This document shows positions 14,889-23,628 of a DNA stretch of 64,000 nucleotides, in pieces. The stretch is from Dehalococcoidia bacterium (GTDB lineage: Bacteria; Chloroflexota; Dehalococcoidia; Lucifugimonadales; JAGWBF01), in contig CBDFGQ010000006.1 of the NCBI GenBank assembly GCA_965247295.1, forward strand, positions 235,868-299,867. The letters are read 5' to 3'. Both the position numbers and the translations under genes were made by a program. The notes beneath the pieces are model-generated. The model saw only the letters and a program-made list of their open reading frames with translations, was not told the DNA's origin and searched no databases. Position 1 is the stretch's first letter, and each line of letters opens with the position of its first letter.

Positions 14889-16256
14889 CAGGCTGCTGAA
14901 GAAAGGGTTCTATGGTCGCGAAACGACCTGGTAATAGCTCATATCGTTGCTCGATGAGTGCTTTGGGAAGGTCTGAAGCCACTTTCCTGGGTTGCAGGAG
15001 TTCCCTTTTCGCCCCTGTCAGGGCGTTGAGGGCAGACTCCGTCCTTGGGAAGTCATGCTGCCTGCAGGACCGGAGCCTCCTGTAGCTGGGTCATGAGCAG
15101 CTTGGCCATCCGCACCAGGTTATACGCAGTGGCCACCAGGTAGCCTGCTAGTCCCGTCTTGTCCACCCCTCGATACCTGGTCTTCCGAAACCCACCGACC
15201 GTCTTCATCCACCCGAAGATCTCCTCCACCCGCTTTCGTATTCGCTGGCTCACCCGGTAGCCCGGATGCCGGGTTGTCCGCCCGTCGATGGCGCTGCGCC
15301 GGCCACTGGTGTTCTGGGCCACGTGAGCCGTGACCCTTCGGTTGCGCATCGCTTCCACACAATCCCGCGTGTCGTAGTTCTTGTCCCCACCCAGGGTCCT
15401 GGGGTGGAAGCCCCGCTCCTTCGCCCCCTCCAGGAGCTTCGGGACCGCATCTCGCTCCGCCGTCCCGCTCGCCTCGCTCACCTGGAAGTCCGTCAGCAGC
15501 CCGTTCCGGTTCTCCATCAGGGCGTGGGCCATGAACACCAGCTTGGCTTCCTTCCCTTTGCCTTTCCGAAACAATCGGGCTTCCGGGTCCGTGGTGCTTT
15601 GGTGGGTCTTATTGCGCCGTTTCTCCCCGTGAAAGTCCACCGACGGGTTGCCGGGGTCCCCGTCGTCCGAGGCCGGCTCTCCCCCTTTGGACTTGAAACT
15701 TTTCAGACTGGCCGCCGCCTCAATCAGCGTCCCATCCACGGTGAAGTGCTCGTCCGAGAGTAAGCCGTGCCGGTCGGCCCCCACCAGGACCGTGGCAAAC
15801 AGCTGTTGCCCCACTGCGTGCTCCAGCAGCCGCTGCCGGTTCTTGGTGAACACCGTCGGGTCAAAGCTGGACTCCAGGAGGTTCATATCCAGGAACCAAC
15901 GATACAGCATGTTGTAGTCCAACTCCTCGCAGAACGCCCGCTCGCTGCGCACGGAAAACAGGGCGATGAGCAGCGAGGCCTTGAGTAGGCGCTCCGGTGG
16001 GATGGAGGGCCGCCCTACCTCGGCATACATCCGGTCAAACTCGGAGGACAGCTCCCGGAGGGCCTCATCCGCCAGCGCCTTGATAGTCCGCAAGGGATGG
16101 TCCGGCGGCACCCGCCCGTCCATATCCACGAAGGTCAACATGGGGACCTGGGGCTCCTGGCATCCGCGCATTGGGGCACCTCCAAAGATGGTCTGCCCCT
16201 ATTTTATCCCAGAAGAGCCTCGGATACACCGTGAACAAGAGTTTTTCCGCAGCCTG
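14889..16256 (-). mobile_element. IS5-family insertion sequence with CTAG target duplication
   Basis: TIRs CAGGCTGCTGAAGAAA / CAGGCTGCGGAAAAAC; CTAG at 14885-14888 and 16257-16260. Confidence 0.9.
15053..16171 (-). CDS. IS5-family DDE transposase
   Basis: HPLRTIK, GRPSIPPERLL, FTVDGTLIEA, GDKNYD, RKRVEEIFGWMK. Confidence 0.93.
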   Translation of the reverse strand: MRGCQEPQVPMLTFVDMDGRVPPDHPLRTIKALADEALRELSSEFDRMYAEVGRPSIPPERLLKASLLIALFSVRSERAFCEELDYNMLYRWFLDMNLLESSFDPTVFTKNRQRLLEHAVGQQLFATVLVGADRHGLLSDEHFTVDGTLIEAAASLKSFKSKGGEPASDDGDPGNPSVDFHGEKRRNKTHQSTTDPEARLFRKGKGKEAKLVFMAHALMENRNGLLTDFQVSEASGTAERDAVPKLLEGAKERGFHPRTLGGDKNYDTRDCVEAMRNRRVTAHVAQNTSGRRSAIDGRTTRHPGYRVSQRIRKRVEEIFGWMKTVGGFRKTRYRGVDKTGLAGYLVATAYNLVRMAKLLMTQLQEAPVLQAA

Positions 16257-21563: not shown

Positions 21564-21653
21564 GGACAGGTATATTATGCCACACTCCCAGCCGGTAGTG
21601 GAACGGGCCATGTAGCCGTGGGAAGTGCAAAACTATGACAGCCCGCGGAACGG

Positions 21654-21682
21654 TTGACAGGGTGCACGCGGAAAGATATACT
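21654..21682 (+). promoter_or_regulatory. Sigma70-type promoter
   Basis: TTGACA-17 bp-TATACT. Confidence 0.8.
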
Positions 21683-21699
21683 CAGTTATTGAAGGGTTT

Positions 21700-21713
21700 A
21701 GTACATACGTTCT
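21700..21713. promoter_or_regulatory. Candidate LexA (SOS) box
   Basis: AGTACATACGTTCT, one mismatch to AGAAC-N4-GTTCT, just downstream of the -10. Confidence 0.55.
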
Positions 21714-21751
21714 GATTCAGGGAATAAATGTGCAAGCGAGGAGGCTCTCCG

Positions 21752-22183
21752 ATGGACAGGAATGACTCACTATTGCTAACTGTTGCTGCCTCGGAGGGGG
21801 CTGGGCTGACACCCGTGCAGCTCCAGAAGGCGCTGTTTCTAATTGGGGAATCGAAGCTACAAGGGCTGCCACCCGACTATTATGAGTTTATCCCCTACAA
21901 CTATGGTCCCTTCGGCTCGGACATTTATGTTGATGCCGATAAACTCTCTGCCGAGGGCCATCTAGCACAGATACCTGTATCTGGAAGGGCTTGGTCGATT
22001 TATCAGACAACCTCCGCCGGCCAAGAAAGGGCGCAACAGATACAGTCAGAATGCGATCCCGCGCTGGCAACCCATGTCAAAGCGGTTGTGCAATGGGTCA
22101 GATCGTTATCCTTTGGCGAACTGTTGCGGGCAATCTATGCCCAGTACCCAGATTTCCGCCAAAATAGCGTCTTCCAAGAGTAA
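21752..22183 (+). CDS. SocA/Panacea (DUF4065/YwgA)-like winged-helix protein
   Basis: QLQKALFL...YEFIPYNYGPF..IY.D...L...G...IYAQYP; GAGGAGG RBS. Confidence 0.7.
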   Translation: MDRNDSLLLTVAASEGAGLTPVQLQKALFLIGESKLQGLPPDYYEFIPYNYGPFGSDIYVDADKLSAEGHLAQIPVSGRAWSIYQTTSAGQERAQQIQSECDPALATHVKAVVQWVRSLSFGELLRAIYAQYPDFRQNSVFQE

Positions 22184-22191
22184 TCCGAGAT

Positions 22192-22974
22192 ATGACGCTG
22201 ATTATCGGCATCAAGTGTTCAGACGGCATCACAGTTGGTGCTGATAGTGCAGCGACTCTGGGAACCACTACTGGCCTACGGACCGTCATTCAGCCCATGG
22301 CAAAGCTAAGCATCGTACGCGGACAGGCAATCGTCGCAGTATCTGGCCCGGTAGGTACCGCTCAACTTTTCAAAGATAGAGTAGACAGCGCCTACAACGA
22401 TTTGAGGAATATGAGCGCCGAAGATGCAGGTCGAACACTACGCCAGGCGTTCTTGCAGGACCAAGAGATTACGCTGAAGGTGGCGAGCCTAGCCCAGAGT
22501 GTGGTCGGTCCGGCTGCCCAGGGTGACGTTTTGTGCCAAACCCTCGTGGCTGCTGCCCCAGGAAAGCCACCTTACTTGGTTCAGTTCGATTATCAGTGCG
22601 CCCCTGAACTAGCCACCGACGACTTGCCATTCGTCGCGATAGGGAGTGGCCAAAGCATAGCGGACCCATTCCTTGCATTCTTGCGGCGCGTGTTCTGGCA
22701 AGATTCACTGCCCTCGCTCAACGAGGGCAGTTTCGCTGCTGTATGGACGCTACAACATGCTATCCTCGCGGCTCCCGGAGGGATTGCCGCACCCATCAGC
22801 ATCGCTAACTTGCAGGTAACTAGTGGGCAACCATCCGCTAGGCTTCTGCCGGAAGGTGAAATAAAAGAGCACTACGAGGCCGTCGGCGCAGCAGAAGATC
22901 GCCTGCGTGAATTCCGTTCGGAGCAAAGGCCAGGGCTCTCGGAACCCAAACCCCCGGCTGCGCCTACGGGTTAG
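22192..22974 (+). CDS. Proteasome beta-subunit-like Ntn (Thr1) protease
   Basis: M-TLIIGIKCSDGITVGADS, downstream Lys (MAKL), VSG, FVAIGSG. Confidence 0.8.
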   Translation: MTLIIGIKCSDGITVGADSAATLGTTTGLRTVIQPMAKLSIVRGQAIVAVSGPVGTAQLFKDRVDSAYNDLRNMSAEDAGRTLRQAFLQDQEITLKVASLAQSVVGPAAQGDVLCQTLVAAAPGKPPYLVQFDYQCAPELATDDLPFVAIGSGQSIADPFLAFLRRVFWQDSLPSLNEGSFAAVWTLQHAILAAPGGIAAPISIANLQVTSGQPSARLLPEGEIKEHYEAVGAAEDRLREFRSEQRPGLSEPKPPAAPTG

Positions 22975-23163
22975 GCGACCTTTCTCACCATCCACCGTAT
23001 ATCGTCTATCTCCCCAGCATCATGGCGTGAGTTTTGCACTTCCCTCTATCCCTGTGCCTCCTACCCGGCGCGGTAGCAAGGTAGCCCCGTATGGGTTATA
23101 ATTGTCCCTGCCCAGCTTCCCGTCAGAACGGTCGGGCGCAGTACGCAAAGATGAGGTGTAACT

Positions 23164-23628
23164 ATGCCAGCAGAGGTCGGACAATCGGCCCCGGAATTCA
23201 GCCTGCTTTCTCAGTCAGGAGACCGGGTCAGCTTGAGCCAATACAAGGGACAGAAGAACGTGGTCCTCTCCTTTCACGTCTACGATTTCACAGGCGGTTG
23301 AACGAACCAGGTCTCCTCGTTCAGGCAGTCTAACGGCCAGTTCGAGGAGAAGGGTGCCCAGGTACTGGGCATAAGCTGTGACAGCCACCACTCCCACCGG
23401 TCGTACTCGACCGGACTTGGAAACATCCCTTACCCACTGCTGTCCGACTTCCACCCCCACGGAGAGATGAGCAAGTCCTACGGCCTGTGGAACGAGGAAC
23501 GGGGCACCAGCAACCGTGCGGTGATCATCGTGGACAAAGGGGGCATCGTGCGGTGGAGGAAGGAGTACGCGGCGCCCGCCATACCCAACCCGGCGGACAT
23601 CCTGGCCGAGCTGGACAGGCTAGGCTAA
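23164..23628 (+). CDS. Selenocysteine-containing peroxiredoxin (AhpC/TSA, AhpE-like), TxxU
   Basis: MPAEVGQSAPEFSL...FHVYDFTGG-TGA(23299)-TNQ...VLGISCDS...YPLLSDF...RAVIIVDKGG; UGA sits at the peroxidatic Cys position. Confidence 0.88.

Follow-up and report, generated by a model that had tools for sequence, protein, structure and literature searches.

A mobile cassette joining a proteasome-beta-like enzyme to a winged-helix partner in Dehalococcoidia: a candidate toxin-antitoxin-like or defence module

The locus described here raises the question of what a proteasome-type enzyme does when it is encoded beside a small partner protein in a genome in which no other gene of its family was found. 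The two genes lie in the window, a stretch of 64,000 nucleotides from a Dehalococcoidia bacterium to which all unlabelled coordinates refer, and form a cassette between queG (QueG) and an AhpC/TSA peroxiredoxin gene. Composition and neighbours are as given in the preliminary description of the locus: the cassette is AT-richer, with 54.6% GC against 60.7% for the genome, within the lowest 3.9% of 5000 random windows, and a GC3 of 0.56-0.57 against 0.80 for queG. The sigma-70-type promoter TTGACA-17-TATACT claimed for it is present on the forward strand at 21654..21682, matching the consensus at 11 of 12 positions, and both hexamers and their spacing are preserved in L084, the nearest relative fetched. 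The palindrome AGTAC-N4-GTTCT (21700..21713), a predicted LexA operator by its matrix score, exists as claimed but does not stand just after the -10; it starts 18 nt past it, behind the presumed transcription start. A ribosome-binding site, AGGAGG (21739..21744, +), of which GGAGG is kept in L084, leads to gene 1 (21752..22183, +), which encodes 143 aa, the length of the database protein; its start is most likely the ATG at 21752, preceded by the AGGAGG at 21739, and not position 21728. Gene 2 (22192..22974, +; 260 aa) begins 8 bp after the end of gene 1 at 22183. Downstream, the peroxiredoxin gene (23164-23628, +) has a TGA as its codon 46, in frame and within an FTGGU motif; with TGA read as selenocysteine its frame is open for 154 residues, and the product is likely a selenoprotein.

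Gene 2 matches PF00227 (Proteasome) with 29.4 bits, above the curated cut-off of 22.4. A word search returned 509 homologs, and 558 representatives at E<=1e-30 were found in a 50% library; gene 2 had no match in PADLOC, and neither gene had one in NCBIfam at 1e-15. Structure comparison of the gene 2 model (pLDDT 89.3) recovered the suspected Ntn alpha-beta-beta-alpha fold with both Foldseek, whose top match was Anbu 5nyw (E 3.6e-12), and VIA, in which actinobacterial and archaeal beta subunits and Anbu were near-tied at Z 22-24 (3krd_R: Z 23.7, rmsd 2.9, 210 aligned), at 14-21% identity to these proteasome beta and Anbu structures. The details reported for the protein, namely the 8-bp gap, the Met-Thr start, ADS at 17-19, Lys38 and GSG at 151-153, were all found, so that the key residues in its own numbering are Thr2, Asp18, Lys38, Gly52 and Ser152. 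Passages of Huber et al. (PMC4792962) give the proteasome triad as Thr1-Lys33-Asp17, with Ser129 and Asp166 in a proton shuttle. Among 120 distinct paired copies of gene 2, Thr1 is kept in 119, Asp17, Lys33 and Gly47 in 120 each and Ser129 in 105, and the Met-Thr start, without a propeptide, runs throughout the alignment. By alignment of the same 120 copies the Asp166 and Ser169 positions are unconserved, the region reading (N/A)PGG(V/I); the near-invariant Asp158 might stand in for this shuttle, and since Asp166/Ser169 are not kept, the efficiency or chemistry of gene 2 may differ. The model has an extended helical segment at 76-111 (helices 76-105 and 108-111), a 7-residue loop between H3 and H4, and a C-terminal helix at 221-244 followed by a proline-rich tail. 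Judged by alignment and model, gene 2 is a propeptide-less proteasome-beta homolog with an intact predicted catalytic triad. It is the sole PF00227 gene found in the host genome (93.75% complete), so that no alpha subunit was found there, and it has no conserved ATPase neighbour.

Gene 2 could instead be a specific processing enzyme or a ligase like Connectase, with gene 1 as its substrate or tag. The helices H1/H2, which are absent from Connectase, are present in the gene 2 model, and the best folds are proteasome beta and Anbu, so that this reading is held improbable, even though the proteasome-homolog family includes a ligase (passages of PMC8665760), Asp166/Ser169 are unconserved by alignment and the modelled helical insertion may hinder ring closure. 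A conserved NSVF motif ends gene 1, as would suit a substrate or tag; solo gene 1 copies in phages keep a similar C-terminus, which suggests a structural role.

Gene 1 had been described as DUF4065-type and SocA/Panacea-like. A distant kinship stands, and gene 1 has a GPF motif in which Gly and Pro are invariant and Phe takes the place of Val in Panacea (GPV), but the label is loose: gene 1 itself has no Pfam match at E<=1, PF13274 (SocA_Panacea) included, and 9 of 68 homologs match PF13274 weakly, with a best E of 0.00096. Several homologs bear the source label YwgA, and in PADLOC gene 1 matches the N-terminal part of PDC-M19A (E 4.9e-14). Its model (pLDDT 96) is a winged helix. Chain D of the DarTG structure 7yk3 matches this fold best, and no other match extends over nearly the full length (Z 11.1, rmsd 4.0, 138 aligned; Foldseek E 2e-3; runner-up at Z 9.3); a Z of 11 is moderate for a largely helical protein such as this. 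No Panacea structure appeared among the fold matches. As modelled, gene 1 belongs with the winged helices of the YwgA/DarG-C kind and is only distantly related to Panacea/SocA.

PadR and MarR structures match gene 1 as well, at Z 8-9, and a weak PadR match was found in 6 of the 68 homologs. Protease-HTH switches are known (passages of PMC10440598), and gene 1 might act as a repressor by binding DNA until a signal causes the enzyme to cleave it, as in CapP/CapH or ImmA/ImmR; at one locus (L267) the two genes are in fact divergent. The recognition helix of gene 1 is acidic, however, with Asp61 in 97%, which argues against DNA binding, and no conserved regulated neighbour was found, while the sole conserved palindrome is accounted for by LexA. 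Such a switch is given little chance. Elsewhere in the host genome, at L246 (137-2046; G000:C5:188647-190556), the gene of an HD-domain protein overlaps a distant gene-1 paralog (HHalign probability 96%), with a 15.5-bit LexA-type box between -35 and -10; from these sequences, L246 is a second predicted SOS-controlled pair of an enzyme with a YwgA-type protein.

The proposal that the two genes form a unit was borne out by their co-occurrence. Of 77 genome loci reached through gene 2, 69 also have gene 1, the 8 exceptions being 5 Gemmatimonadota copies, 1 half gene and 2 distant 430-aa proteins with intact Thr/Asp. Starting from gene 1, with the best 80 of 407 metagenome matches, 77 loci leave room for 150 bp or more, and at every one of them gene 2 follows downstream within 28 bp; where there is less room the start of gene 2 is visible in 2 of 3; the metagenome tally of 78 includes one viral locus with gene 2. 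Since the metagenome set consists of the closest matches, even samples were drawn as well, 400 genomes from the class and 400 from the phylum, which gave 27 distinct gene-1 loci. A proteasome-like gene, in many cases very divergent, lies downstream at 20 of these and in divergent orientation at one (L267), making 21 of 27; five of the remaining six are fusions to a tail that we take to be DUF488-like (P0408 carries PF04343), and one precedes a ParE-like gene, a weak match (E 0.014) behind a distant gene-1 homolog. About 3% of the evenly sampled genomes carry the pair. The pair travels across many bacterial phyla in a patchy manner, one gene-2 homolog (P0073) having an archaeal label, and as in type II toxin-antitoxin systems it is an adjacent conserved gene pair. 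Tree distances of the two genes are correlated (Mantel r 0.66, 120 pairs), as shared descent alone would also give. No conserved third gene was found beside the pair, apart from one syntenic Anaerolineae clade, in which the pair occupies the same site in 14 loci, between uvrB/tRNA-Met and lysA; a constant site of this kind is what would be expected of a domesticated gene. Longer gene forms amount to 8 proteins among 7992 candidates scored, mostly fusions to other domains. Real fusions of the two genes were considered for L007 and P0405 and rejected, as both appear to be products of a frameshift or of read-through, in which gene 1 is truncated or the tail is nonsense.

Where the pair is broken, the two genes fare differently. 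Five close gene-2 orphans (L065 and L067-L070), a Gemmatimonadota clade with conserved synteny and no gene 1, encode a full-length but degenerate protein in which Thr1 and Asp17 are both replaced by Ser and the GSG is missing; from its sequence it is a possible pseudo-protease, and because the five are close relatives they probably record one loss event. Gene 1, in turn, occurs alone: among six viral loci, two hold the pair, two have a solo gene 1 between phage head genes (L249, and L248, where gene 1 is extended at its C-terminus), one is cut off by the end of its contig and the last is distant. Gene 2 had no match in annotated phages and plasmids and one locus in viral contigs. At L129 gene 1 stands beside an IS-split gene 2. 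Gene 1 is apparently broken and gene 2 intact at L050 and L144, and at L007 gene 1 is frameshift-fused; these defects may stem from errors in assembly. At L074, L076 and L083 there are distant proteasome-like genes that keep Thr/Asp intact and have no gene 1, and those at L074 (6001-7287) and L076 (772-2058) encode proteins of about 430 aa with a long unassigned C-terminal part. On sequence grounds, degenerate gene-2 orphans together with solo gene 1 copies would form an asymmetry of the toxin-antitoxin kind. Roles reversed as in RosmerTA, with gene 1 toxic and the protease its antidote, are highly improbable: gene 1 is found without gene 2 and its structural relatives are antitoxin domains, although protease antitoxins do exist (RmrA; passages of PMC10440598).

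The cassette had further been linked to the SOS response through its palindrome. A lexA gene is present in the host genome. A LexA matrix was built from 26 distinct sites at lexA/recA promoters, no cassette locus among them; training site L177 was dropped for two mismatches, the host recA promoter was left out, and the starting consensus is one that we presume for Chloroflexota, because a literature search gave no paper on the LexA motif of this phylum. The palindrome scores 16.9 bits, fifth in the 3.39-Mb genome, against 14.8 for lexA's own site. The same variant is found at lexA promoters of order relatives, and L084 keeps both half-sites while spacer and flanks have changed. At the host recA promoter (L080) no LexA-type box was found in the 200 bp upstream, nor among the top-scoring sites listed. 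From the box, the cassette copy is predicted to be SOS-controlled, that is, switched on by DNA damage. The two LexA-type boxes with the highest scores in the genome (G000:C1:116490 and C6:544611) each precede a copy of an 870-codon ORF, the two copies sharing their N-terminus, and another box (G000:C7:356767) lies between two divergent genes, presumably an SOS-associated peptidase and an ImuB-like gene to go by their motifs.

Elsewhere, upstream sites of at least 9 bits were found at 13 of 27 Chloroflexota genome loci against 0.9 expected, 12 of the 13 belonging to one clade. Other phyla, which use motifs other than that of this Chloroflexota matrix, have 3 in 40 against 1.5 expected, near chance, and the metagenome loci (best 80 of 407) 3 in 80 against 2.0. 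Of the 20 pairs in downstream arrangement from the even Chloroflexota sample, two have the box, and one of these two repeats L022; the base rate is about 2% of genes (31/1528). The box recurs in about four Chloroflexota lineages, of which the window with L084, the Anaerolineae clade and L022 are apart on the tree or by identity, and the fourth, L259, is a divergent pair. In the Anaerolineae clade it lies between -35 and -10; its assignment to uvrB was rejected, as uvrB has its own box and two tRNA-Met genes and a terminator-like hairpin intervene. The SOS link appears to hold for the cassette, whose box behaves like a LexA site, but not for the family, with 2 of 20 even pairs and boxes in the transposon itself. 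Because most copies elsewhere have no box, SOS control of the pair would be recurrent but optional, not a family rule.

Damage control bears on a further reading, a self-contained adaptor-protease pair, in which gene 1 would recognise a substrate, be it a toxin, a phage protein or some protein that is damaged or bound to DNA, and bring it to the enzyme with no need for ATP, much like SocA with SocB and ClpXP. LexA-type boxes in at least four separate Chloroflexota lineages would suit it, but the box is missing from most copies; SocA is a proteolytic adaptor, but other PanA antitoxins are independent of ClpXP or Lon (both in passages of PMC8832971). Orphan gene 2 decays, as expected without substrate supply, and no other PF00227 gene was found in the host genome; on the other side, no conserved third gene offers a candidate substrate, and solo gene 1 in phages is harder to explain. 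The adaptor reading is judged rather unlikely.

How the cassette reached its site is indicated by a perfect 15-bp inverted repeat (21620-21634 / 23030-23044) that brackets the whole of it and was overlooked in the first reading; 0 of 2000 shuffles reach 13 bp. The left copy (21620..21634, +) is the 15-bp core that ends DDE_Tnp_1 elements in family relatives, with GT outside it in the cassette and GA in the sister elements, whose ends are 17 bp; the right copy (23030..23044, -) is followed by TC as in the sister elements. With at most one mismatch the motif occurs in 15 of 27 family genomes against 3 of 27 with the reversed control. The nine facing pairs fetched (L300-L308) enclose sister elements of 1.7-4.6 kb with target duplications of 7-8 bp at 7 of 9 loci; most contain a DDE_Tnp_1-type transposase gene, whole or broken, and L303 and L307 have no transposase ORF. 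Among their cargo genes are one for ThsB-TIR, one for superinfection immunity and one that matches HicA weakly. In 7 of 9 a LexA-like site scoring 10-12 bits was found, in most cases close to an end, so that the vehicle may have supplied the SOS control. The cassette element has no transposase inside, its flanks agree at 4 of 5 bases only, no clear target duplication, and the host genome has just a partial transposase homolog at 35% identity. In G001 queG directly adjoins the peroxiredoxin gene, an empty site, and other relatives carry different cargo there; among 60 family and order relatives no close copy of the cassette was found, only one weak, different match. Contigs cover the cassette in pieces, and none of the 15 contig joints listed (there are 72 more) skips it. 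What is new here is the position of the cassette between 15-bp ends of a DDE transposon family in which sister elements have defence cargo as well as LexA-like boxes; to judge by its ends, the cassette is mobile cargo of this family. The sister elements may be a source of further undescribed defence genes. In another genome a 2.4-kb copy of the pair stands at two places, beside an IS1595 gene. Flanking repeats as a trait of the pair family were rejected, at 3 of 130 loci against 1.2 expected. The window also contains a DDE transposase gene (DUF772/DDE_Tnp_1; 15053-16171, -), of which the genome has about ten copies, each with a 13.9-bit LexA-like site upstream.

The neighbourhood of the pair was scanned up to three ORFs to each side. 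Near-duplicates were left out, as were loci that lack gene 1 or are shorter than 6 kb, and the Anaerolineae clade was represented by a single locus; of 65 loci selected, 2 gave no ORF (n=63). Manual curation found credible defence neighbours at 14 of 63 loci, for example CBASS, RM, ApeA-like and PD-T7-4. The survey shows the expected recurrence, but enrichment in defence islands is only modest, with raw PADLOC matches in 39 of 277 neighbour proteins; the 4 of 51 found for the ORFs of the window make a weak control. The neighbours often include transposases and integrases, but just as well housekeeping genes (119 of the 277 scanned), and many copies stand singly among the latter. At L044 (3365-6804) an operon with HORMA and CBASS cyclase genes immediately precedes the pair.

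Of the two options first put forward, the evidence leans to the protease as effector, with the adaptor-protease pair second. That the cassette is a mobile toxin-antitoxin-like or defence module, with the predicted protease as effector and gene 1 as its restraint, is about evenly balanced; this reading is taken because the enzyme needs no processing, the partner has an antitoxin-type fold, the orphans are asymmetric and carriage is mobile. The effector option is placed before the adaptor option because close gene-2 orphans are catalytically degenerate and gene 1 occurs alone; as a counterpoint, an orphaned gene 2 would be expected to decay under whatever kind of dependence on gene 1, also if gene 1 were an adaptor or a substrate. 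Removal of the initiator Met would expose Thr1 of gene 2, which would need no propeptide processing and be active once folded; such activity calls for an inhibitor in trans. Gene 1 would be that inhibitor, its acidic winged helix serving as a protein-binding surface like the C-terminal domain of DarG on DarT. In the host and in some of the other Chloroflexota, expression would go up when DNA damage, prophage induction included, leads to cleavage of LexA, and a phage or stress signal would displace or titrate gene 1, and the freed enzyme would cut a host or phage protein. The solo gene 1 copies of phages would then be decoy inhibitors. Against the toxin-antitoxin-like reading stand the modest defence enrichment, the syntenic Anaerolineae clade, broken gene 1 beside intact gene 2, distant intact proteasome-like genes without gene 1, and the one divergent, non-operon locus (L267). 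In its fullest form, in which a proteasome-family threonine protease would be the killing effector of an anti-phage toxin-antitoxin system, held by a winged-helix mimic, spread by transposons, repeatedly wired to SOS and countered by solo inhibitors of phages, the reading is possible but doubtful.

The unit is well suited to experiment: at about 1.4 kb for two genes, with a built-in Thr1Ala control and natural inactive orphans, it makes the function of one orphan proteasome family directly testable. With the protease as effector, Panacea/DarG-C-like domains would control one more class of toxin, a proteasome-type enzyme; with gene 1 as adaptor, the pair would be a minimal ATP-independent targeted protease. 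Should the anti-phage toxin-antitoxin reading be true, it would give one of the orphan proteasome homologs its first function and serve as a model of how a beta subunit is controlled without ATP.

Among known systems, transposase-less mobile insertion cassettes and passenger-carrying IS elements compare in their vehicle: here too the terminal inverted repeats of a DDE_Tnp_1 element surround cargo with no transposase inside, whereas no clear target duplication is found. With Anbu, the 20S beta subunit and HslV, gene 2 has in common the fold, the Thr-Asp-Lys triad and Gly47. It shares with Anbu a C-terminal helix H5 on a beta-like fold, at 15-19% identity, and has none of the neighbours that we take to make up the Anbu operon. 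It differs from the 20S proteasome in having no propeptide and no alpha subunit found in the host genome (93.75% complete), and from HslVU in that HslV is compact without a C-terminal helix, while gene 2 has 260 aa, the helix 221-244 and no conserved ATPase neighbour. Fuchs, Alva and Lupas in 2021, in passages of PMC8665760, reported no suggestive genomic context for any of 22 orphan proteasome-homolog families. The PHI/group II homologs of that paper share with gene 2 the lack of a propeptide, the triad, a helical segment after H1/H2, a C-terminal helix and a patchy spread, and by the criterion in its text the gene 2 model is likewise without an insertion between H3 and H4; the likeness is one of description, not of sequence comparison, and gene 2 differs in having a tightly linked partner. 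Among the papers searched in full text none was found to describe the pairing of genes 1 and 2, and neither do passages of the two papers on Panacea (PMC8832971, PMC10440598), from whose main text the word proteasome is absent and whose supplementary tables could list the pair. The cassette departs from PanAT/SocAB and DarTG in that gene 1 has no PF13274 match, its partner is a proteasome-like enzyme and no macrodomain is encoded. In conclusion, what it shares with these systems is a small winged-helix-type partner beside an enzyme, and the best fold match of gene 1 lies within a DarTG complex.
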